Assembly (NCBI GenBank): GCA_043811145.1
Contig: JBDRNN010000261.1
Coordinates: forward strand, 1 to 28,739
Direction of reading: 5' to 3'
Source of the DNA: Candidatus Bathyarchaeota archaeon
GTDB taxonomy: Archaea; Thermoproteota; Bathyarchaeia; Hecatellales; Hecatellaceae
Length of the DNA stretch: 28,739 nt
Below the pieces are notes generated by a model, which worked only from the letters and a program-made list of their open reading frames with translations, did not search any database and had not been told where the DNA came from. Below, piece by piece: positions 3,948 to 13,993 of the stretch; position 1 is the first letter of the stretch; every line of letters starts with the position of its first letter. A program made the translations under genes and the position numbers.

Positions 3948-3974
3948 TTCAATATTTTGGGTAGCCAACATTTA
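3948..3974 (+). repeat. att-like direct repeat, left copy: TTCAATATTTTGGGTAGccAACATTTA
   Basis: 17-bp exact match and 25/27 overall match to 12433-12459. Confidence 0.9.
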
Positions 3975-3979
3975 GCTAA

Positions 3980-3997
3980 CACAATGTTTTAGAACTT
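3980..3997 (+). repeat. Internal inverted arm CACAATGTTTTAgAAcTT (pairs with 12411-12428)
   Basis: 3980-3991 is the exact reverse complement of 12417-12428. The match is 16/18 over the extended arm. Confidence 0.85.
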
Positions 3998-4142
3998 TTT
4001 ATGACAGAAAACGTCGGAATCAAAGTGACAACCCCCTGGGGGTGCTGAGATGGGAGGCGATCATTATGACATGAATCCGGTGGAGGATTCTCAGAATAAA
4101 AATATGTGTAACAAAAGTTACATTAGATAAAAAAGGGGAAGT

Positions 4143-5015
4143 TTAGAGCTCCTTTTTGAAACTGACTGCCGTTGCTACTCCGCCCAGAACTAACATGACT
4201 ATGCCTGCTATCATCAGCAGGGATATGTTGAAGGGTGAAGGCAATGGTGGCGATGTGAAGTTGTCGTTGGTGGTTGTGAAGAAGCTGAGTTTCAGGAAGT
4301 TTTCTCCGCTGACCCACTGCATGTAGCCGTAGACACGCCAGTCACCATCATTGGGTATAGTGTAGGATTTTGTCCAGTGGCTGTCTGTGTCTTTTGTGAG
4401 AGTCACGGTTGTCAGGGGTTCAAAGGTCTGCGCATTTTCAATATCCACATATACCTGAGCTATGTCCTGGGGATCTCGGGTGGCGACGAACTCAAAGTTG
4501 ATGTTTAACGTGTTCAGCTTGATTACCTGATCCGCAGAGGTCACGTCTATGCCGTTGACTCTGAAGTAGCCGTCAGGCTGCCCGGTTATGGCGTAGGTTG
4601 TATGTTCAAGGATGTTGGCTGGAGTCCAGCCGTCCCGGATAACCCAGTTGAATTGGTACAGGACACCGTTCCCGTTGGGAATTGTCCACTGCCATGAGTA
4701 AGTTTGGCTTCCATCCGGGTTAGTTGGCCAAGAAGATTTGGATGGTGTTGAGCTGTATCCAGTGGATGTTATTGTTAGGTCCGCACCTGCACCATGAACG
4801 TCATAAACCGTGATTGAGAGCTGTATCTCTGACCCAGCGTGAATGAGGTTAGCCGTGTTCGGGTCTGTGGAGTCGGGATAGATGGAGCGGATTTCAGGCG
4901 GAGTCGAATCTATTGATAACATGGACTGTGCTGGTGTGCTTGCGTCTGCTGCAAGAAGAACTGATCCGACAAGCAGCATGAGTACTCCTGCAAAAAAAAG
5001 TTGCTTAGATTTCAA
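4143..5015 (-). CDS. Hypothetical secreted protein with N-terminal signal peptide and C-terminal Pro-rich/TM/basic anchor
   Basis: Hydrophobic N-terminus (LFFAGVLMLLVGSVLLAADA), Thr/Asp-rich beta-type body and PPLPSP-TM-KK tail. GC-richer than the backbone. SD-like AGGTAA upstream. Confidence 0.8.
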   Translation of the reverse strand: MKSKQLFFAGVLMLLVGSVLLAADASTPAQSMLSIDSTPPEIRSIYPDSTDPNTANLIHAGSEIQLSITVYDVHGAGADLTITSTGYSSTPSKSSWPTNPDGSQTYSWQWTIPNGNGVLYQFNWVIRDGWTPANILEHTTYAITGQPDGYFRVNGIDVTSADQVIKLNTLNINFEFVATRDPQDIAQVYVDIENAQTFEPLTTVTLTKDTDSHWTKSYTIPNDGDWRVYGYMQWVSGENFLKLSFFTTTNDNFTSPPLPSPFNISLLMIAGIVMLVLGGVATAVSFKKEL

Positions 5016-5205
5016 GTTGATTACCTACAATAAAAATGGTTGCCAAATTATATTGCACCCAAAATTATAACAGCAAAAGCTACGAGGCCTTATTGGAAGG
5101 GCAAGAGGAAGCAGAACATAAAAACAGGAACAGTCTAAAGAAAAAACAATTACGATAGTACGGGATAAGGACGGGTAGTTAAATAATAAGTACCAAGTTT
5201 CTGTC

Positions 5206-5241
5206 GTGTGTGTGCATACCGAGGTACCCACACACACTTTT
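5206..5241. terminator. Stem-loop GTGTGTGTG...CACACACAC followed by a T-run
   Basis: 9-bp perfect arms (5206-5214 / 5229-5237) with an inner TACC/GGTA pair, then TTTT. Function unproven. Confidence 0.35.
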
Positions 5242-5267
5242 ATAACGATAGGTTCTTTATCTCGCAG

Positions 5268-5319
5268 AAAAGTTAAAAAATAACTTTTTATAGTTTTTAT
5301 CCTTTTTACGCAGTAATTT
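5268..5319 (+). repeat. Conserved non-coding site, copy A (AAGTT-N7-AACTT core plus TTAC-N3-GTAA box)
   Basis: 39/52 ungapped identity with 9377-9428 and identical spacing of two palindromic modules. Confidence 0.6.
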
Positions 5320-5355
5320 TGAAAGATTAAATTCCTGAAGAGGACAGATATTTGT

Positions 5356-6018
5356 ATGCGTGTTGTTGTTTCTTGGAGTGGCGGTAAGGAGAGCGGTCTC
5401 GCCTGCTATGAAGCCATCCATAAAGGTTTTGAAGTTGCCTATCTTTTGAATATGATAACTGAAGACGCAAAGGTATCTATGACTCACGGGATAAGTTCAA
5501 AATTACTCCATACACAATCGCAGGCTATAGGGATCCCGATAGTTCAAAGGAGCACAACCTGGAATACCTACGAAAAAGAATTCAAGAAGGCAGTATCTGA
5601 ACTAAAGCAGCAGAATGTAGAAGGTGTGGTTTTCGGAGATATCGACCTTCCGGAACACAGAAGTTGGAATGAGAGGGTTTGCAATGAGTTAAATGTTAAA
5701 CCCATTTTACCTTTATGGGAACAGAAACGTGAGCAAATACTCAACGGTTTTATAGATAAAGGATTTGAAGCACTCATAGTTAGCGCCAAAGCTGATTTAT
5801 TCGAGAATGAATGGGTTGGACATAAAATAGACAGAAACCTCATGGAATATTTACACGAACACAAGATTGACCTATGCGGCGAGTCAGGAGAATACCATAC
5901 ATTTGTTACCAACGGCCCGATATTTAGAAAACGCATAAAAATACTTGAGAGCAGAAAGATCATTAGGGACGGGTACGGGTTTCTGGATATTTTAAGATAC
6001 GAAATTCATGAGAAATAA
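5356..6018 (+). CDS. Diphthine-ammonia ligase (Dph6)-like PP-loop ATPase
   Basis: SWSGGKES PP-loop, VVFGDI and DLCGESGEYHTFVTNGPIF. Confidence 0.88.
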   Translation: MRVVVSWSGGKESGLACYEAIHKGFEVAYLLNMITEDAKVSMTHGISSKLLHTQSQAIGIPIVQRSTTWNTYEKEFKKAVSELKQQNVEGVVFGDIDLPEHRSWNERVCNELNVKPILPLWEQKREQILNGFIDKGFEALIVSAKADLFENEWVGHKIDRNLMEYLHEHKIDLCGESGEYHTFVTNGPIFRKRIKILESRKIIRDGYGFLDILRYEIHEK

Positions 6019-6152
6019 TCTAGCATTGTGCGTGTTACAGCAATGGTGCAGCCACCGAGATTTAAAACGGAAAGATCCAATTATTAACAATAAAGATCAT
6101 GAATGGTTCTTAACCGATACAGGCAAAGAAGTACCTTAAACACGGAACAGCA

Positions 6153-6840
6153 TCATGCAGCCGACAGGATAATAACTGAAACATTGAAAAAACTGTGAGC
6201 CATAACAGCAATGAGCACGCTTCCCTTGGTGTCGGAGATGCCGTCGTATTTTGGTAGTTTGTATGCGAGGAAATACCAGAGGATCCCCACGGCAAAGGCC
6301 ATGATTACGTAGAGTGGACTGAAGCCGGATAATGATGGTGTGGAAGACTGCCCAGATTCCGATGGAGGTGCCGGCTGCGATAAATTCGTTTTTTGTCCGC
6401 ACCAGCAGTGCGAGGATCATGCTGATTTTTAGGAATTCTTCAGCCGGAGCAACGAGGACCAGCTGCATGAGGCTTTCGCCCATGATTTGTGAGCCGAATG
6501 CGGCGATGCCGAACTGCGGAACATATAATAAACTGTTCACTGGGAAGACTAGGCCTGAGACGGCGACGTTTATCCAAGATATGAAGAAGGCACCAGCCAC
6601 ACCCAGTCCAGCATAAACCCAGTTGATTGTCGGCATGTTTCCTAGAAAAGATGGAATAGAATCGGTGGAGTCTTTCATGAAGACATGGAAGGCGATTACA
6701 GCTAGAACGCTGAACATCAACATGATGCTGAAGCTGACAACCACAGAGAACTGGCTGAACTGAAAATAGAACAACAGCAGAAACGAAATTACGTAAGGGA
6801 TGAAACAGAGAAAAACTGTTATGTCTGTAGCTGGTCGCAT
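6153..6840 (-). pseudogene. CPBP (CAAX/Abi) family intramembrane glutamic endopeptidase with a single-base frameshift near 6330
   Basis: APAEEFLK and IWAVFH motifs lie in one frame. After a one-base shift the frame reads SGFSPLYVIMAFAVGILW...SVLIAVMAHSFFNVSVIILSAA-stop (6153-6155), supplying the CPBP HxxxN motif. Confidence 0.8.
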
Positions 6841-6928
6841 TGTTAGTCAAATAAAAAATACTGTTGCTCAGTTCTACGACCAAGCTCTAAGCAGTTTTTA
6901 TATAGAAATGATGCATGTTCAGGAAAAT

Positions 6929-7135
6929 ATGGCCGACACCAGCCAAAGAAACGCCCGAGAAAACAATAATGCAGAAGATGAGATTGATGATGCGTTGAGA
7001 TGGCTTATCGCCTACACTCCGGACAGTTCTGGCAAATATGCGGAATGTCTTGAAAAGTTGCAGAAAAAAATCAGAGAGCTGAAAAAGCGGATCATAGATT
7101 TGGAAAGAAAGTCTGCTCCGCAATCAAATGAATAA
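6929..7135 (+). CDS. Small hypothetical protein with a C-terminal coiled coil
   Basis: The ATG at 6929 lies about 30 bp after a TTTATATA box and avoids overlap with the CPBP gene. Heptad-like LEKLQKKIRELKKRIIDLE. Confidence 0.5.
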   Translation: MADTSQRNARENNNAEDEIDDALRWLIAYTPDSSGKYAECLEKLQKKIRELKKRIIDLERKSAPQSNE

Positions 7136-7271
7136 ATTACAACGTTTTTTTGAAAAAATGTATAACCATAAAAAAGATGACGACTGGTAGCCTACCCAGC
7201 TAGTTTACGTATATTATCAGCAATTTTATCGATAACTTTAAAAATAAAAGATAGGGGAGGTTTATCTTCCT

Positions 7272-7499
7272 TTACCATGTGGGACTGACTGTCCTTCCAT
7301 GGGTTGTTGAAACCGTCCAGTGGGAGATGTCGACAGAGTTTGAGCTTGGGTTGTAAAGTTCAACCTACTCATTTCCAGAGTCAGTGCCACTCGGATTTTG
7401 CTCAACTTCAACCTTAAACTGCGACCCATTAAACTTAAAAATATAAGAATTAGAGTTCTGTAAAGCTGTTGCTAGATTAATCTGACTGGTAAAATTCGT
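7272..7499 (-). pseudogene. Lamin-tail-domain (LTD) protein remnant
   Basis: Manual translation EVEQNPSGTDSGNE*VELYNPSSNSVDISHWTVSTTHG matches the LTD NE...P....EWVELYN...VD.SGW pattern. TAG replaces the Trp codon at 7365-7367. Confidence 0.75.
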
Positions 7500-7542
7500 C
7501 TACTTTAAGAACAGTTAGGTATGGGATAGAATAGGGCTTAAC

Positions 7543-8469
7543 TTGCAAGAGATACCAATTACATTTTGGATAGCATTCCATGTTATAGTTGCTTTATTAC
7601 TCTTTATAGATCTGTCATATCATGGAAGAGCTTCTAAACTTAACTTTCGGCGAGATGTTATTTGGAGCATTATCTGGATAGCTGCAGGATTAGCATTTGG
7701 AGTTTTTATCTTTTGGTACTTCGGCTATAGAGGAGGTTTAGAATATTTTACAGCTTATATTGTAGAAAAATCGCTAAGCGTCGATAATCTTTTTGTTTTC
7801 ATAGTGATATTCAATTATTTTGCAGTTCCATTTGTTCACCAGCATAAAACTTTATTTTTAGGGATTCTTGGTGCCATGATTTTCAGGAGCATTTTTATAT
7901 TTGCAGGAATAGCTCTTTTGGGACAATTTAACTGGATGATTTACGTTTTTGGCGCTGTTTTATTGTATTCTGGATATGCGCTAGCTCGAGGTAAGATGGA
8001 GCGGGTTGATCCTGAAAAGAATAGGATAGTTAAGATTGCTAGAAGATTCCTTCCGATATCGTCTCAGTATGTTGGTGGCAAGTTCACATCTAAAAAGAGT
8101 GGAAAAATCATATTCACTCCTTTGATTCTAGCTCTGCTTGCAATAGAGACAACTGACATATTGTTTGCATTTGATTCAATTCCAGCAGTTTTGGCAATAA
8201 CTCAGGAATTTTACATAGCGTACACTTCAAATATAATGGCGATATTAGGCTTGAGAGCCCTATATTTTGTTCTTGCAAATGCTTTGCGTAGACTTGTTTA
8301 CCTAAGTAAAGGCTTAGCGATAGTTCTCTCATATTTAGGCTTTAAATTCATAGTATCTGCTTTTGGAATAGAGATACCCACTTTGCTCTCATTATTTGTT
8401 GTTTCAGGCATTGTTCTAATCTGCATATTGGCTTCTATATTTAAAGAGGTCCGTCACAGTCGTATATGA
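7543..8469 (+). CDS. TerC/Alx family metal-homeostasis membrane protein
   Basis: YIVEKSLSVDNLFVF, GILGAMIFR, IETTDILFAFDSIPAVLAIT and YTSNIMAILGLRALYF. Confidence 0.93.
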   Translation: MQEIPITFWIAFHVIVALLLFIDLSYHGRASKLNFRRDVIWSIIWIAAGLAFGVFIFWYFGYRGGLEYFTAYIVEKSLSVDNLFVFIVIFNYFAVPFVHQHKTLFLGILGAMIFRSIFIFAGIALLGQFNWMIYVFGAVLLYSGYALARGKMERVDPEKNRIVKIARRFLPISSQYVGGKFTSKKSGKIIFTPLILALLAIETTDILFAFDSIPAVLAITQEFYIAYTSNIMAILGLRALYFVLANALRRLVYLSKGLAIVLSYLGFKFIVSAFGIEIPTLLSLFVVSGIVLICILASIFKEVRHSRI

Positions 8470-8613
8470 GAAAAACTAAAGGTCACACCTATTTTATAAA
8501 CCCAATAAAATTTCTTCCTTACTTTAAAAACTACATAATGCAATATGCAGAACTATGAAAAAAGTTTAAGATCTGGCTCCGTTATCTACATGTCCTAAGA
8601 GTAGAGTAAAACA

Positions 8614-9075
8614 TTGAGTTTTGTTGAACTAATTCAAGTTACATTGGCGCCTGTTGTACTTATCACAGCGGTTGCTTTAATAAACATCTCACAATACGCC
8701 CGATACGGACGTATCCATGACAGGATAAGACAACTTCTTAAAGATGTTGAAAAAATAAATCTCGCTAAGATCTCTGAAGAGATACGAAACAAAAAGATTG
8801 CCGTCTCAAAGGATCAGCTAAGAATTTTTTTGGAAAGAGCTAGACTTGCTAAATGGTCATTAGTTTTAATGCAGCTTTCGTTAGTAGCTTCTGCGATAGA
8901 TGCCATCTTAATTTTTATTAATGTTGCAGTGCTTGTAGAGCTAGGTTTTGTTATAATCATAATATTTGGGTTTAGTGTTTTGCTAATTTTAATCGGAGCT
9001 ATTTTAGCAGCATTTGAAATATACAAATCATTAAAAGGGTTACATCTGGAAATTGAAGCAGTCATTAAGAGCTAG
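8614..9075 (+). CDS. DUF2721-like membrane protein
   Basis: IQVTLAPVVLI...RYGRIHDRIRQL followed by two TM helices. Confidence 0.7.
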   Translation: MSFVELIQVTLAPVVLITAVALINISQYARYGRIHDRIRQLLKDVEKINLAKISEEIRNKKIAVSKDQLRIFLERARLAKWSLVLMQLSLVASAIDAILIFINVAVLVELGFVIIIIFGFSVLLILIGAILAAFEIYKSLKGLHLEIEAVIKS

Positions 9076-9153
9076 CTTCTTTTAGTTTAAAGTTTAAGTT
9101 AAGGAATTTAGTAATATATTCTGGAGGCTAACCTTTGTCTAAGATGTTTGCAA

Positions 9154-9677
9154 TTACTCGTGTACGAAAGACACGGAAGAAAGATGAAGGCAGACACAAA
9201 GCCAAGAAGAAAAAGCTAGTTGACTAGCTTAATTTGGAGTCAAATTGTCCTTTCACTCGATATCATGATTTTATTTCATTTTTCTCGGCGATAGCGGCGA
9301 TTAGCCGCCTCAGCTCGGCGACCTGAAACATTTTCCCTGAGATTTGACTTTACCGAGTAAATTGGCGGAAACTATAAAAAGTTAAAATTTAACTTTTTTA
9401 CTGTTTTCCCTATTTTACCGAGTAATTTGTGAGTTAAGGAGAAATGTTTCACGAGTAGTTTTTAATAAAGAACGGAATGGGAAATAGCTTTAAATTCGAT
9501 AAGCCTGCATTGAAAAATGGCAAATATGAACAAACCCCCCCCCTCAAAATAAAAATTGGGGAAGATTTCAAGTGGTCTCCCTTTTCAAAAAATAAATACG
9601 GTGAGAAATTTTTAGATTTTAACTTTTAACCGTTTACTTCTTTCACTCGAGAATAATATTTCAAAGGGGGTTTTGTT
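9154..9677. repeat. Repeat-rich non-coding region
   Basis: TTTACCGAGTAA x2 (9349, 9414), CTTTCACTCGA x2 (9250, 9640), six ACTCG/CGAGT cores, a central palindrome at 9376-9398, and facing C9 (9535-9543) and G5 (9666-9670) tracts. Confidence 0.6.
9377..9428 (+). repeat. Conserved non-coding site, copy B
   Basis: Direct-orientation homologue of 5268-5319. Confidence 0.6.
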
Positions 9678-9781
9678 ACAAATTATAACGACATTGGAAG
9701 TTTGAGATTGGAAAAGAGTGGATATGTAAAAGTTAATCTGGGTTTCTATCTTAACCGTTTATGACAGGTTGTTTTTGTAAC

Positions 9782-10360
9782 ATGTTCGATGAAATCACGA
9801 TAATATTTCTTTCGTTATTTTTAATAATGGATGCATTTGGCAGTATGCCTATCTTTCTTTCTCTGACTACCGATGTTAAAACGAGGCGTAAACAAGCGTA
9901 TGTTACGAGCTACGCAGTCCTAGTTGCGGGGTTGGTATTATTTGTTTTTCTTTTCTTTGGCCAAGATATCTTAACTGTGTTTAAGATTCATCTTTCATCA
10001 CTCAAAATTGCGGGAGGTATGGTATTGGTGGCACTAGGCTTTGAGATAGTAGTTGGGATAGGTTTTATGCGTACAAGTTTTGGCTCATCGCCTGCAATAA
10101 CGCTGATAGGTACCCCGTTACTAACAGGACCAGGAGTAATCGCAACCACGATGATTTTCGTGCAGGAGTATGGATATTTGGTTACCGTTCTCGCCTCTCT
10201 TGCCGTTCTAGGTTCTAGCTGGGTTATTCTTTTTACCGCAAAATATCTGCGCCGTGTACTAGGCAAAAGTGGTTTGGATATTATTTCCAGAGTAATAGGT
10301 CTCCTACTGATTGCTATAGCGGTTGAACTCATCATCGATGGATTAAAGGCAGCCTTTTAA
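9782..10360 (+). CDS. MarC family membrane protein
   Basis: LFLIMDAFGSMPIFLSLT, LKIAGGMVL, GTPLLTGPGVIAT and IISRVIGLLLIAIAVELII. The ATG at 9782 is preferred over 9761. Confidence 0.93.
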   Translation: MFDEITIIFLSLFLIMDAFGSMPIFLSLTTDVKTRRKQAYVTSYAVLVAGLVLFVFLFFGQDILTVFKIHLSSLKIAGGMVLVALGFEIVVGIGFMRTSFGSSPAITLIGTPLLTGPGVIATTMIFVQEYGYLVTVLASLAVLGSSWVILFTAKYLRRVLGKSGLDIISRVIGLLLIAIAVELIIDGLKAAF

Positions 10361-10725
10361 GCAAACATTCGAAGAAATTAAAGCGCAGACTCAACTCATA
10401 GCCATTCAGAAGGTTACAAGGCTTTATTGATTATAAAGCAAAATGGGTTGGAGTCCCAACTGTTTACGTGAATGCTATGGACAGTTCAAGAACATGCTCA
10501 ATATGCGAGTTTAAAACAGACCTGGAAGAGCAGGAAAATCTCAACTGCCCCCAATGCGGCGTCACCATAAACAGACAAGTGAATGCCACTTTAAACCTCC
10601 TCAAAACTCAAGATGACACCCTAAGGTTCAGGGTGGATAGCCTCTCAAACGTAGAGATGCTCAGACCCTTAAACAAGGCTGAAATCCAAAAAGAGGAGGG
10701 AATTATTCAGCCATATGCCGAATAG
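10360..10725 (+). pseudogene. tnpB: IS200/IS605-family TnpB C-terminal remnant
   Basis: The frame extended upstream reads [42 protein letters not shown]...CPQCG...NRQVNATLNL. W is replaced by TAG at 10399-10401. The N-terminal part and tnpA are absent. Confidence 0.85.
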
Positions 10726-10750
10726 TTACCAAACAAAAAAATATACCTTT

Positions 10751-10766
10751 GTCCCCTCCGGGGGAC
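10751..10766. terminator. GC hairpin GTCCCC-TCCG-GGGGAC between convergent genes
   Basis: 6-bp perfect stem with T-tracts nearby on both strands. It could instead be the IS right-end hairpin. Confidence 0.4.
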
Positions 10767-10789
10767 TAGGCTTTTGAAAGTTTTCAGGG

Positions 10790-11815
10790 TTATGCGGAAT
10801 ATTGTACTGCGTCGCTTATGCTTACTGGCGATCCTGTCGAGTCAAGTCCGGTGACTGTTAGCGTGGCCGTGATGACGTCGCTGGTTGCCAGGTCCCAGAC
10901 AAGTTTGCCAGTCGCATCGAACTTGTTTATCTGGTTCACACCATAGTCAAGACGTTTAGCTGTGTCCACTGTGCTGCCGACGGTGTAGGTGTAGATCGTG
11001 TTGGTGCCATCCTGGGATAATGTGAATGATGTCAATGGGATGTATCCAACGCCGTGTAGGTAGACTGCGGATTCAGATGCCACCAGTTTCGTTTTGTCGG
11101 TTGAGTTGTATTTCAGCTCGTACTGGTAGAGCAGATGGCTGCGTTTGGTGGTGGTGAAGTTCAGATCCCATCCGGCAAATTTTGTGACTTTGGCTGTGCC
11201 GACGCTTGCTACATCATCCGGACTGGTTTTGAATGCGATTGCCTCATAGGTTCTCAGGAAGCCTTGTATGTTGACTGTTGGGTTTCCAGCCTCAGTGACA
11301 TACTTATCACCGATATAGACGGGTACTACGTAGTCTTTGATCTGATCATTTGTTACATCTTTGAATTCCCAGTCGTCGATGCGGGTGGTTACCTGGTTCA
11401 TTTTTTCAAGGTCCCAGTAGTATGTTTGTCCAGATTTGGGTGGTACGGTGAGGACGGCGTAAACGTAGCCTCCGTCTTGTTCGGTTACTTCCGCATCTGT
11501 CACGTCTCCGCTGCCTAACAGAACCCAGTTGCCGCCACGGTAGGCGTACCAGTAGAAGTCATAGTTGGTTCCTGATGTCAGTGCGGAGAGATCGAATGCG
11601 TCGTAACATGCTTCGTTGAGGTTGATTTCGCCGACGTAGAATGTTTCACCTGTAGTTGTTGTTCCTGTTTGTCCGGTGCCTGTGCCTGTTCCTGTTTGTG
11701 ATGTTTGCTGTGCTGGCCCGAAGGACAGATTGCCTGTTACGGCTGTAAAACCTAGCGATGCGATGATGACGAGTAGAAGAGCTCCGAGTACTGTGTTTTT
11801 AGTTCCTGCTTTCAT
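10790..11815 (-). CDS. Hypothetical N-terminally anchored/secreted protein with Thr-Gly linker and beta-rich ectodomain
   Basis: N-terminal TM, QTGTGTGTGQTGTTTTG linker and acidic/Thr/Tyr-rich body. Intact ORF in the GC-richer part of the island. Confidence 0.8.
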   Translation of the reverse strand: MKAGTKNTVLGALLLVIIASLGFTAVTGNLSFGPAQQTSQTGTGTGTGQTGTTTTGETFYVGEINLNEACYDAFDLSALTSGTNYDFYWYAYRGGNWVLLGSGDVTDAEVTEQDGGYVYAVLTVPPKSGQTYYWDLEKMNQVTTRIDDWEFKDVTNDQIKDYVVPVYIGDKYVTEAGNPTVNIQGFLRTYEAIAFKTSPDDVASVGTAKVTKFAGWDLNFTTTKRSHLLYQYELKYNSTDKTKLVASESAVYLHGVGYIPLTSFTLSQDGTNTIYTYTVGSTVDTAKRLDYGVNQINKFDATGKLVWDLATSDVITATLTVTGLDSTGSPVSISDAVQYSA

Positions 11816-11842
11816 GATGATATCCTTCTAATATAAAAATGG

Positions 11843-12145
11843 TTACTTTTTCCTTGCGTAGTAGGCTCCTCCACCAGCCAGTGCGATGCCGAATGCGATG
11901 AAGACTGCCTGAATTGGGCTTATGGGAATTGGGTTTGCTCCTGTGTCAACGAACAGTGACATCAAAGTGAAGCTGTCGCCGAAGACCGTGTTGATCTTCC
12001 CGATGACGTGGAAGTTTCCTTCAGCTGGAAACGTGTACTGTACACTCCATAATGTGTCCGCTGTCGTCTCCGCCAAAGTTGGTGTTGCTATGATGCGCCA
12101 TTCAGGGATGACTCCACCGTAGAGCTGTTTGACGGTGACCTGAAC
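11843..12145 (-). pseudogene. 5'-truncated C-terminal fragment of a paralogue of the 4143-5015 protein
   Basis: Open frame from 12145 without a good start. 13/36 ungapped identity to the 4143 protein, plus the same Pro-TM-RKK tail. Confidence 0.75.
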
Positions 12146-12386
12146 TCAAGGTCTCTTGTCGTCTGATCCAATTTTGAAGTGTATCTATGTGCTTGTAGAG
12201 TTCTTTTCCTTTCAACTGTTCGAATTCTTCAAGAACATCTTCGGGTGAACGACCCAGTCGTGTGAAATAGTTGTATGCGAAAACTGATGCAAAATACTTG
12301 TTTCCGAGGGAATCCAGCCATTTGGATATGGACGGGTGGGATGCTATCCATGGTTTCACGTTTGAGTTGCGGGTGTCAAGGACCAA
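12102..12386 (-). pseudogene. Probable N-terminal (core-binding) fragment of a tyrosine recombinase/integrase
   Basis: SISKWLDSL...YFTRLGRSPEDVLEE...HIDTLQNW resembles N-termini of archaeal site-specific integrases. It starts 47 bp inside the att repeat, behind a TATA-like TTTTATAAG. No catalytic domain is present. Confidence 0.5.
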
Positions 12387-12410
12387 GGTGAAACTAATTT
12401 CCGCAGCTGG

Positions 12411-12428
12411 AACTTATAAAACATTGTG
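12411..12428 (-). repeat. Internal inverted arm (pairs with 3980-3997)
   Basis: TAAAACATTGTG at 12417-12428 is the exact reverse complement of 3980-3991. Confidence 0.85.
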
Positions 12429-12432
12429 CCAA

Positions 12433-12459
12433 TTCAATATTTTGGGTAGAAAACATTTA
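12433..12459 (+). repeat. att-like direct repeat, right copy: TTCAATATTTTGGGTAGaaAACATTTA
   Basis: Overlaps the last codons and TGA stop of the 12434-13993 gene and has an 11-6-11 imperfect inverted architecture. Confidence 0.9.
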
Positions 12460-13993
12460 TGATGAACCTATAGGCCTTTGTGATCCATCCTAAAACTATC
12501 AGACCTATGTTAAAAACAATGGCTGCTGCGGGGAATCCAAGTTCATCCTCTATCCACTTGTCAAATCTAAGCCTTGTTCTAACAGAGACTGTTTTGCTAG
12601 GGTTGAAACTGTTTTTTTTGTCGATGCTCATCTTAACAAGCTTCATGAACTCGACAGCCGGTTGTCCTTTACCTAACCTCATAAAGAAATAGTTCCATAA
12701 ACCTGCTCCGTAGGGCTTCCCGTTACATTTGATTCCCAAGTTAACAATATCTTTAGATAGAGGGTAAGAAAGTATAAACTGAAATTTTCTCTTCTCGCTT
12801 AAAAAAAAGGACGGCATCATAACCATGGAGTTATGGGCGGCTACAAAACCCTTTACTGCAACATGTGCACGATAAAGCCGAGAATATCTATGGCATTTTT
12901 TTATGAAAAACTCTATTTTATTTAGAGGTATAATTACCTCTTCACCGAGAAATGAAGGTCCTAACCTCTTAACCCGAAGAGGCATAAATCTTCCTTCCCA
13001 AAGACCTTCTCCTGCTGAAGGCAAGAATGCAGCTTTACCTTCTTCAATTAGATTAGCGCAAAGATCGTGGAAAGTTTGAGATCCCCTCTCAACTTCCAAG
13101 TTTTCTCCTTCAAAAATAATTAAAAGGAGGGCGTCAGCCTCAGGTAGCTTTAGTTTTAGTTTCTTGCTCATCTCAAGGCAGCCTTGATCCAGAAACTCTA
13201 CATGGAAAGGTTTGATGTTGGAATGCAGTAGATTTATTAGGAGAGTTTGAGCGTCTGCTAAACTTTTGAAACTGTAGGCTAAAGGAAGAATCCTGTCATG
13301 TTTTGGATAAACTTTAATGACAGCCTCTGTAACTGTTCCTAAAGTTCCTTCAGCTCCTATGTATAGCCAGTTTAGGTTATATCCTGATGCGAAAAGTATC
13401 TGATTATTATTTGTTGTATTGATAATTTCACCTGTAGGAGTTACAACCTTTAAACTGGTCACTTGCTCTCCAACTGAACCGTATTTTAAGCTACCAATAC
13501 CTAAGCCTCCAGTTGATATCCATCCACCTACAGTTGCTGAAGGGGCGCTACTAGGATATGCGCCTAACATATAGCCTCTCGTATTAAGGTAGTCTTGAAG
13601 GTCCTTCCATCGCACTCCAGCTTGAACCTTCACTACCATCTCGTTCTTGTCAAAGTCTAAAATCTCGTTCATACCTGTCAAGTCAAGTAAGAGACCACCC
13701 CTACCTGGAACCGCCCCCCCGAAAGATGCGGTAGATGCTCCTCTGGGTGTAATAGGAATTCCAACTATATGCGCCCGACGAACAACTTCTGATACTTCGC
13801 TTGCAGTGTTAGGCCTGAATATTATGTCAGGGATCATTCGGAAAAATATTCTAATAACAGTAGTTCTAACTGGGCCTATAACTGGCGCTAAATCATGACT
13901 ATAAGCAATTCTTTCAAGTGTATCAGTTGTAACCTTCTCAGCTCCAAAATCTTTCAATAAACCCTCATAAAGTTCTAGCCAGTTTGTTCTCAA
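12434..13993 (-). CDS. FAD-binding oxidoreductase (GlcD/D-lactate dehydrogenase, VAO/PCMH-type fold)
   Basis: PITPRGASTASFGG, VQAGVRW, YPSSAPSATVGGWISTGGLG, IGAEGTLG and DKKNSFNPSK. Confidence 0.9.
   Translation of the reverse strand: MRTNWLELYEGLLKDFGAEKVTTDTLERIAYSHDLAPVIGPVRTTVIRIFFRMIPDIIFRPNTASEVSEVVRRAHIVGIPITPRGASTASFGGAVPGRGGLLLDLTGMNEILDFDKNEMVVKVQAGVRWKDLQDYLNTRGYMLGAYPSSAPSATVGGWISTGGLGIGSLKYGSVGEQVTSLKVVTPTGEIINTTNNNQILFASGYNLNWLYIGAEGTLGTVTEAVIKVYPKHDRILPLAYSFKSLADAQTLLINLLHSNIKPFHVEFLDQGCLEMSKKLKLKLPEADALLLIIFEGENLEVERGSQTFHDLCANLIEEGKAAFLPSAGEGLWEGRFMPLRVKRLGPSFLGEEVIIPLNKIEFFIKKCHRYSRLYRAHVAVKGFVAAHNSMVMMPSFFLSEKRKFQFILSYPLSKDIVNLGIKCNGKPYGAGLWNYFFMRLGKGQPAVEFMKLVKMSIDKKNSFNPSKTVSVRTRLRFDKWIEDELGFPAAAIVFNIGLIVLGWITKAYRFIINVFYPKY

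Follow-up and report, generated by a model that had tools for sequence, protein, structure and literature searches.

Extra copies of the recombinase motif beside the crossover core are known from the third element of FLP/FRT, the DR1 and DR2 repeats of integron attI, and the TnpI/IRS site of Tn4430, where the accessory copies are one-sided and/or direct repeats. The sites of Cre/loxP and of archaeal XerA/dif consist of two inverted half-sites around a spacer (13-8-13 and 11-6-11, respectively; the dif layout is described in PMC8371274). In lambda, according to the same review, the arm sites are unlike the core in sequence, have a separate N-terminal domain dedicated to them, lie asymmetrically over about 240 bp, and depend on IHF/Xis (PMC8371274). 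Few archaeal integrases have been studied experimentally. This 2021 review gives their attachment (att) sites as identity blocks of 8–243 bp plus some flanking nucleotides and states that recombination also requires nucleotides outside the strictly identical block. Inverted repeats come up only in connection with the SSV core and dif, and the review contains neither an accessory-site architecture nor flanking inverted arms (PMC8371274). The SNJ2 paper reports conserved P/P' arms and no inverted repeats, and a study of Bathyarchaeia viruses mentions integrases and has no att analysis. The DNA analyzed here (the window, a 28.7-kb stretch of a Bathyarchaeia genome with an assembly of 1,525,582 bases in 284 contigs) contains a decayed 8.5-kb integrative element that entered the final codons of a glcD-like gene through site-specific recombination. 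The attP that is rebuilt from the two ends of this island carries a pair of mirror-symmetric outer arms, most likely extra integrase-binding sites that are specific to attP, as their sequences suggest. No description of the integrase family or of a mirror-symmetric four-site attP was found in the open-access literature.

The two sites predicted for this element combine properties of several of these systems. As in Cre/loxP and XerA/dif, attB would consist of two inverted half-sites (9 bp each) around a short spacer (6 bp), and the predicted fold of the homologous integrases is closest to Cre, IntI, and XerA. Unlike the Cre and Xer sites, the predicted attP (~60 bp, four sites) differs from attB (~24 bp, two sites), and the integrase (405–460 aa) is larger than the Cre and Xer proteins, its predicted model showing an additional N-terminal helical region and, at the C-terminus, a long helix. 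Features shared with lambda-type systems are an attP larger than attB, accessory sites outside the core, and integration in or beside the 3' ends of tRNAs or other genes. Unlike those of lambda, the arms repeat the core half-site and mirror each other within a span of 60 bp, and the model shows no arm-binding domain to match them. The difference from FLP/FRT, attI, and TnpI/IRS is that the extra copies flank the core on both sides as mirror images, each palindromic with the neighboring inner site. Finally, SSV1/SSV2, pTN3, pT26-2, and SNJ2 likewise have archaeal tyrosine integrases that target tRNA genes, but in the island described here att is located upstream of the integrase gene (int) and the proteins of the family score below curated thresholds.

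A 27-nt direct repeat is present at both ends of the island (3948–3974 and 12433–12459, 25 out of 27 positions identical) and reads TTCAATATTTTGGGTAG, then CC or AA, then AACATTTA. The left copy (attL, in + orientation) combines the chromosomal left part with the element right part of the repeat, and the right copy (attR) overlaps the stop codon and the last eight codons of the target gene, a glcD-like FAD-linked oxidase (12434–13993, minus strand) whose 3' end is rebuilt by the repeat. The island has terminal direct repeats, an integrase gene at one end, and a restored target 3' end, as found in site-specific integrative elements. In all 10 relatives that carry the glcD-like gene an HdrD/TfrB-like iron–sulfur gene follows within 100 nt, whereas in the window the glcD-like and HdrD-like genes are separated by the island and a QmoC-like membrane gene.

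Once position 12449 is joined to position 3965, the left part of the rebuilt junction (12411–12449) reads AACTTA-TAAAACATTGTG-CCAATTCAATATTTT-GGGTAG and the right part (3965–3997) reads CCAACATTTAGCTAA-CACAATGTTTTA-GAACTT, in agreement with a preliminary description of the window that had reported a symmetric string with perfect 12-bp arms. The outer arm at the int-distal end (CACAATGTTTTA, 3980–3991, plus strand) is a perfect 12-nt reverse complement of the outer arm at the int-proximal end (12417–12428, minus strand, with TAAAACATTGTG on the plus strand); the arms lie 36 nt apart in the joined form, and the 12-mer has no further copy in the whole assembly. Among randomly chosen junctions from the same genome (200,000 pairs of 60-nt contexts) a perfect inverted repeat of at least 12 nt was found with p = 2.4e-4, and one whose arm-to-junction distances differ by at most 6 nt with p = 7.5e-5; when the real core was kept and the flanks were randomized, none out of 3000 trials matched the observed score. 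The estimate in the preliminary description that coincidence is unlikely therefore holds (a chance of about 1 in 10,000), but its argument from an exact 15-6-15 symmetry does not provide independent evidence: it is circular because every inverted repeat has a center, and any with a 36-nt spacer can be read as 15-6-15. The informative fact is that the axis of the arms (GGG|TAG) coincides with the center of the independent 27-nt direct repeat, the two being 0.5 nt apart.

It is extremely improbable that the arms are a product of chance in AT-rich DNA or that they are the terminal inverted repeats of a transposon with no relation to the att repeat. Although the region is rich in A and T and the inner half-sites by themselves (7/9) would not be significant, such arm symmetry does not arise often in the genome's own sequence (p of about 1e-4), the 12-mer is unique to the two ends, and the layout is found in six other elements (see below). 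The transposon reading was rejected: no transposase is present, the sole TnpB piece is an internal fragment, and the 27-nt repeat rebuilds a gene 3' end, as is characteristic of site-specific integration. The junction is a genuine attP-like unit, with arms that are not coincidental.

At the center of both the direct and the inverted repeats is GGGTAG (3959–3964, second copy at 12444–12449), the putative overlap region in which the crossover would occur. A scan with the motif CAATRTTTT identified the inner half-site CAATATTTT directly to its left (3950–3958, second copy at 12435–12443, plus strand). The inner half-site to its right exists in an element version (CCAACATTT, 3965–3973, minus strand), which agrees with the motif at six out of nine positions on that strand, and in a chromosomal version (AAAACATTT, 12450–12458, minus strand, on which it reads AAATGTTTT). 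Together with 12435–12449 the chromosomal version forms the predicted attB, CAATATTTT-GGGTAG-AAAACATTT, a 9-6-9 imperfect palindrome with seven out of nine positions symmetric. The motif has five matches in the window (1.7 expected), four of them at the att sites, and the chromosomal flanks contain nothing arm-like at the positions that correspond to the arms. The AATATT/AACATT half-sites of the preliminary description match at only five out of six positions and are better represented as 9-mers that abut GGGTAG (CAATATTTT with either AAAACATTT or CCAACATTT). The two repeat copies differ only directly to the right of GGGTAG, with CC on the element side (3965–3966) and AA on the chromosome side (12450–12451). 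If this difference dates from the integration, strand exchange would have occurred to the left of it, in the 17-nt identical stretch whose last six bases are GGGTAG; one of the six other elements (L047) likewise has two differing bases beside its central block. These sequences are consistent with a 6-bp overlap at GGGTAG, so that the crossover region proposed earlier agrees with the CC/AA difference, and the cleavage points are putative.

The layout was compared with six further elements at tRNA targets that have full-length homologous integrases and both borders mapped. Two of these share a tRNA 3' end (L047, 31-nt repeat, 8 kb; L048, 30-nt repeat, 9.3 kb), and the remaining four are L052 (28-nt repeat, 15.3 kb), L071 (tRNA-Lys, 28-nt repeat, 6.9 kb), G223 (oppositely oriented tRNA, copies in tandem, 24.7 kb), and G401 from Archaeoglobus (19-nt repeat, 51 kb). 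In all six the rebuilt attP has inverted arms flanking the repeat, with arm matches of 12/12, 13/14, 8/8, 8/8, 15/16, and 10/11 (L047, L048, L052, L071, G223, and G401, respectively). The arm axes lie within 2.5 nt of the repeat center, and the arms occupy positions 16–31 outward from the axis in each of the six elements (19–30 in the window). Compared with randomized flanks, P is <3e-4 for three elements and 0.02–0.035 for the other three, whereas the rebuilt attB sites score at the null mean and are without arms. The four-site layout is a family-wide architecture and not a peculiarity of the island in the window. The expectation that intact integrase-bearing elements have the same attP is borne out for the architecture, which the six elements share, but not for the sequence, which differs.

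Several observations concern the att regions of further homologous loci. Many metagenome contigs (L084–L133) begin at the tRNA/att position, only 140–190 nt before the integrase frame, which suggests that assemblies break at the att site. Tandem arrays with three copies of the att core are present at several tRNA targets (L047/L078, L052, and G223, which corresponds to L049+L169+L170), and the distal core copies are again followed by an arm-like motif (TATCATGGGTTCAA); the arrays indicate successive integrations of related elements into the regenerated tRNA. In one locus (L092, 9857–9917) the intron of a tRNA-Pro(CGG) upstream of a homologous integrase contains CACGATAAG, which exactly matches, in inverted orientation, the first bases of the int-proximal arm (CTTATCGTG) 43 nt away; arm, core, and arm therefore form one contiguous layout even when the element is integrated. 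This may be related to a proposal, cited in PMC8371274, that attP sites carry introns into tRNA genes.

The arms of the different elements were compared with their targets. In the tRNA-targeting elements the arms copy the 5' half of the T-arm (GTGGGTTCA-like): they read TCGTGGGTTCAG or similar, which is the 5' strand of the T-stem together with the start of the T-loop and equals the left one of the two inner sites. Its counterpart on the right, the acceptor 3' strand (GGCCCCAC), mirrors it imperfectly. Each outer arm is palindromic with the adjoining inner site (e.g., GAACCCAC, 6 nt, GTGGGTTC in L047), and in L052 both arms are altered together to GGGACTA. In the window the arms instead copy the half-site of the glcD end, CAATRTTTT, a motif unrelated to the T-arm. 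When the best direct match between the 3' half of the tRNA and the 40 nt downstream of the tRNA was determined, the T-arm copy was located at 32–34 nt in 14 out of 16 non-identical tRNA-adjacent loci, and in the window the int-proximal arm directly repeats the inner half-site that precedes it by 32 nt on the int strand; only the constant spacing is informative here, since single matches between arm and T-arm are too short for significance. Judged from these sequences, arms and target co-vary across the family, which is what a single protein that recognizes all four sites predicts.

The arms, previously described as accessory binding sites, are not a separate motif of the arm type but further copies of the core half-site. 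They do not fit a heterobivalent attP of the lambda type: the arms equal the core motif, and the modeled N-terminus is all-helical in a predicted fold that resembles Cre, IntI, and XerA. Because the arms copy the core half-site and not a different motif, they would be bound by the same integrase. The putative role as accessory sites of the integrase that the preliminary description assigned to them is in line with the recurrence of the layout beside homologous integrases. Alternatively, the arms could pair in single-stranded DNA, with attP acting as a folded hairpin substrate like integron attC or the attP of CTX phage. The arm complementarity that is maintained when the arm sequence changes (L052, G223) fits such pairing, but it would give the arms no reason to copy the inner half-sites or to keep a fixed spacing of 32–34 nt, no rolling-circle or conjugation gene was seen in the island, and attB is an ordinary duplex 9-6-9 site, making the hairpin highly unlikely.

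The int-proximal arm is closely linked to the putative promoter of int. On the int strand of the window this arm runs straight into a TATA-like box, TTTTATAAG (12413–12421, minus strand), which shares 5 nt with the arm and precedes the TTG of the int remnant at 12386 by ~30 nt. The order of arm, TATA-like box, and ATGCCnTACAAGG is common to about 25 homologous loci. In bacterial prophages att regions are established to overlap integrase promoters, with negative autoregulation (PMC2951348). Here, int may likewise be autoregulated through the proximal arm. The same observations would fit an alternative in which the arms are bound by another factor (an excision/directionality protein or a transcription regulator) or serve mainly as an operator of the int promoter, with the integrase using the inner sites only: the int-proximal arm overlaps or abuts the TATA-like box in the window and in the homologous loci, and att/promoter overlap with autoregulation is documented in prophages. 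This alternative appears unlikely, because the arms are similar to the core half-sites and vary along with the target (T-arm copies vs. CAATRTTTT), as expected for one protein, and in the window no gene that the distal arm might regulate is obvious.

The integrases of this family are divergent, uncurated tyrosine recombinases. They score below threshold with the Pfam model PF00589 (15.8 bits, cutoff 27.1) and with the NCBIfam XerA model (24–26 bits, cutoff 220) and match PHROG 1 with an E value of about 1e-7. The catalytic residues R200, K202, H292, R295, H318, and Y325 are invariant in 10 homologs, and the whole region is missing from the remnant in the window. An AlphaFold2 model (predicted local distance difference test score of 82) is all-helical in its N-terminal half and has an alpha/beta catalytic domain and, at the C-terminus, a long helix; a beta-sheet arm-binding domain was not seen in the model. 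The best Foldseek matches are the integron integrase IntI (2a3v), Cre, archaeal XerA (4a8e), and the Tn1549 integrase, with E values of 4e-6 to 1e-5 over 330–370 aligned columns for the first three. A search with a full-length paralog encoded in the same genome (contig C179) returned matches at E ≤ 1e-5 in 103 out of 401 sampled Bathyarchaeia genomes, close homologs are also present in Archaeoglobus metagenome-assembled genomes, and a profile search of 1.84 billion representatives returned 207 clusters (50% identity) at E ≤ 1e-30. In most loci the start of int follows a tRNA gene of the same strand at a distance of 50–100 nt.

The genome that contains the window encodes two full-length paralogous integrases (C179:1074–2288, 405 aa; C164:1326–2282, up to ~440 aa in a 442-codon frame). 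Both are located downstream of protein-coding genes and not of tRNAs; the two contigs break off less than 1.3 kb from the gene, before the distal site, and each gene has a direct repeat at 32–33 nt just before a TATA-like box. The bearing of these repeats on the site plan is suggestive only, as they are read from incomplete loci. Upstream of the integrase on contig C179 (L002:1902–2888) a 2-hydroxyacid dehydrogenase gene appears split into two frames (218 aa and a 50-aa N-terminal piece), which may be due to a frameshift or an assembly error.

The integrase gene in the window itself is reduced to a 103-codon open frame (12102–12413, minus strand) next to the right repeat that reads inward and covers the N-terminal ~80 residues of the family. 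Residues 14–83 of the remnant are 40% identical (E = 9e-17) to residues 3–80 of the 405-aa paralog. The catalytic domain and the rest of the protein are absent; the system in the window is therefore dead and the island cannot be mobilized by its own integrase, so that nothing in the island can act as the integrase supposed earlier to operate at this site. The frame after the remnant (11843–12145, minus strand) is a paralog of the C-terminal third of a 290-aa anchored protein (4143–5015, minus strand; 34% identity over 83 aa), and the integrase was probably lost through a deletion that fused the remnant to a truncated copy of the anchored-protein gene. A split integrase of the SSV ("suicidal") type was rejected: att lies upstream of the int start, and the left end contains no integrase-like open reading frame or C-terminal piece.

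The explanation that best accounts for these data, to which a probability of about 0.7 is assigned, is that the island is a decayed element whose attP had four sites and whose attB had two. The attP would comprise four copies of CAATRTTTT in alternating orientation (outer arm, 8 bp, inner site, GGGTAG, inner site, 8 bp, outer arm), and attB only the two inner half-sites around GGGTAG. The inner sites would be bound by integrase protomers, with strand exchange at or beside GGGTAG, and the outer arms would serve as accessory sites for the same integrase that exist in attP only. Integrase bound to the int-proximal arm, which overlaps the TATA box, would in addition repress int.

A number of points weigh against this explanation. 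The layout, its significance, and its recurrence with co-variation in six elements are observed, but protein binding, the position of cleavage, and autoregulation are what we infer from them. The inner pair can be partitioned as 8-10-8 as well as 9-6-9, the boundaries of the motif being fuzzy. Three of the seven arm pairs are short (8–11 nt, P of 0.02–0.035), and the elements represent about five independent att types, since L047 and L048 are close relatives. None of about 30 metagenome loci has a distal repeat within 10 kb, and the architecture is verified only in a minority of elements, those with mappable borders, which most metagenome loci lack. The specificity of the island's sites is not assignable to an intact protein because its own integrase is truncated. 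A search for the empty site, attP, attB, attL, or attR with a 22-base core pattern gave no match in metagenome_contigs and genome_contigs, a search for the circular form with an arm-N(30–42)-arm pattern gave none in viral_contigs, and no near-identical relative of the island was found in the public collections searched. The nearest relatives share only about 37% identity in the target gene. The attP is for this reason a reconstruction, and the joined sequence of the preliminary description was not recovered from these collections. In viral_contigs the integrase profile found no relatives, so that no episomal attP could be read directly. Among 80 metagenome loci with homologous integrases no contig is circular and none has a distal repeat within 10 kb, and intact arm-core-arm palindromes are not enriched upstream of int in these loci over random windows, as expected if the elements are integrated.

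The body of the island (3975–12432) encodes two paralogous secreted or anchored proteins, a Diphthami_syn_2 protein, TerC, DUF2721, MarC, and a TnpB C-terminal fragment. The last was identified by eye from the translation as a TnpB-like zinc-finger C-terminal end in a stop-to-stop frame (10402–10725, plus strand) and is a remnant of the IS200/IS605 type. The island also contains, upstream of genes, two copies of a 52-nt repeat that includes a palindrome (AAAAGTTAAAAnnTAACTTTT); the copies (5268–5319 and 9377–9428) are 4.1 kb apart, and the repeat is probably a shared promoter or operator.

For a family matched in about a quarter of the sampled Bathyarchaeia genomes, the finding provides a conserved and testable site plan that consists of inner sites, an overlap, outer arms at fixed spacing, and an int promoter under one arm. 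It also provides a concrete hypothesis of how a simple two-domain recombinase tells attP from attB, and compact unequal att sites are a property that makes integrases useful tools for genome engineering. As the arms co-vary with the target, they offer a route for a shift of specificity from tRNA genes to the ends of protein-coding genes. A broader proposal is put forward only tentatively, as one that is possible but on balance doubtful: a Cre/Xer-like family may recombine a compact, mirror-symmetric attP of four sites with an attB of two, and the numbers of sites brought together in integration (4+2) and in excision (3+3) may set directionality and self-regulation without a lambda-type domain or host factors. 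Specificity could then be moved from the T-arm of tRNAs to gene ends by changing the four copies of a 9-bp motif together, as the element in the window appears to have done.

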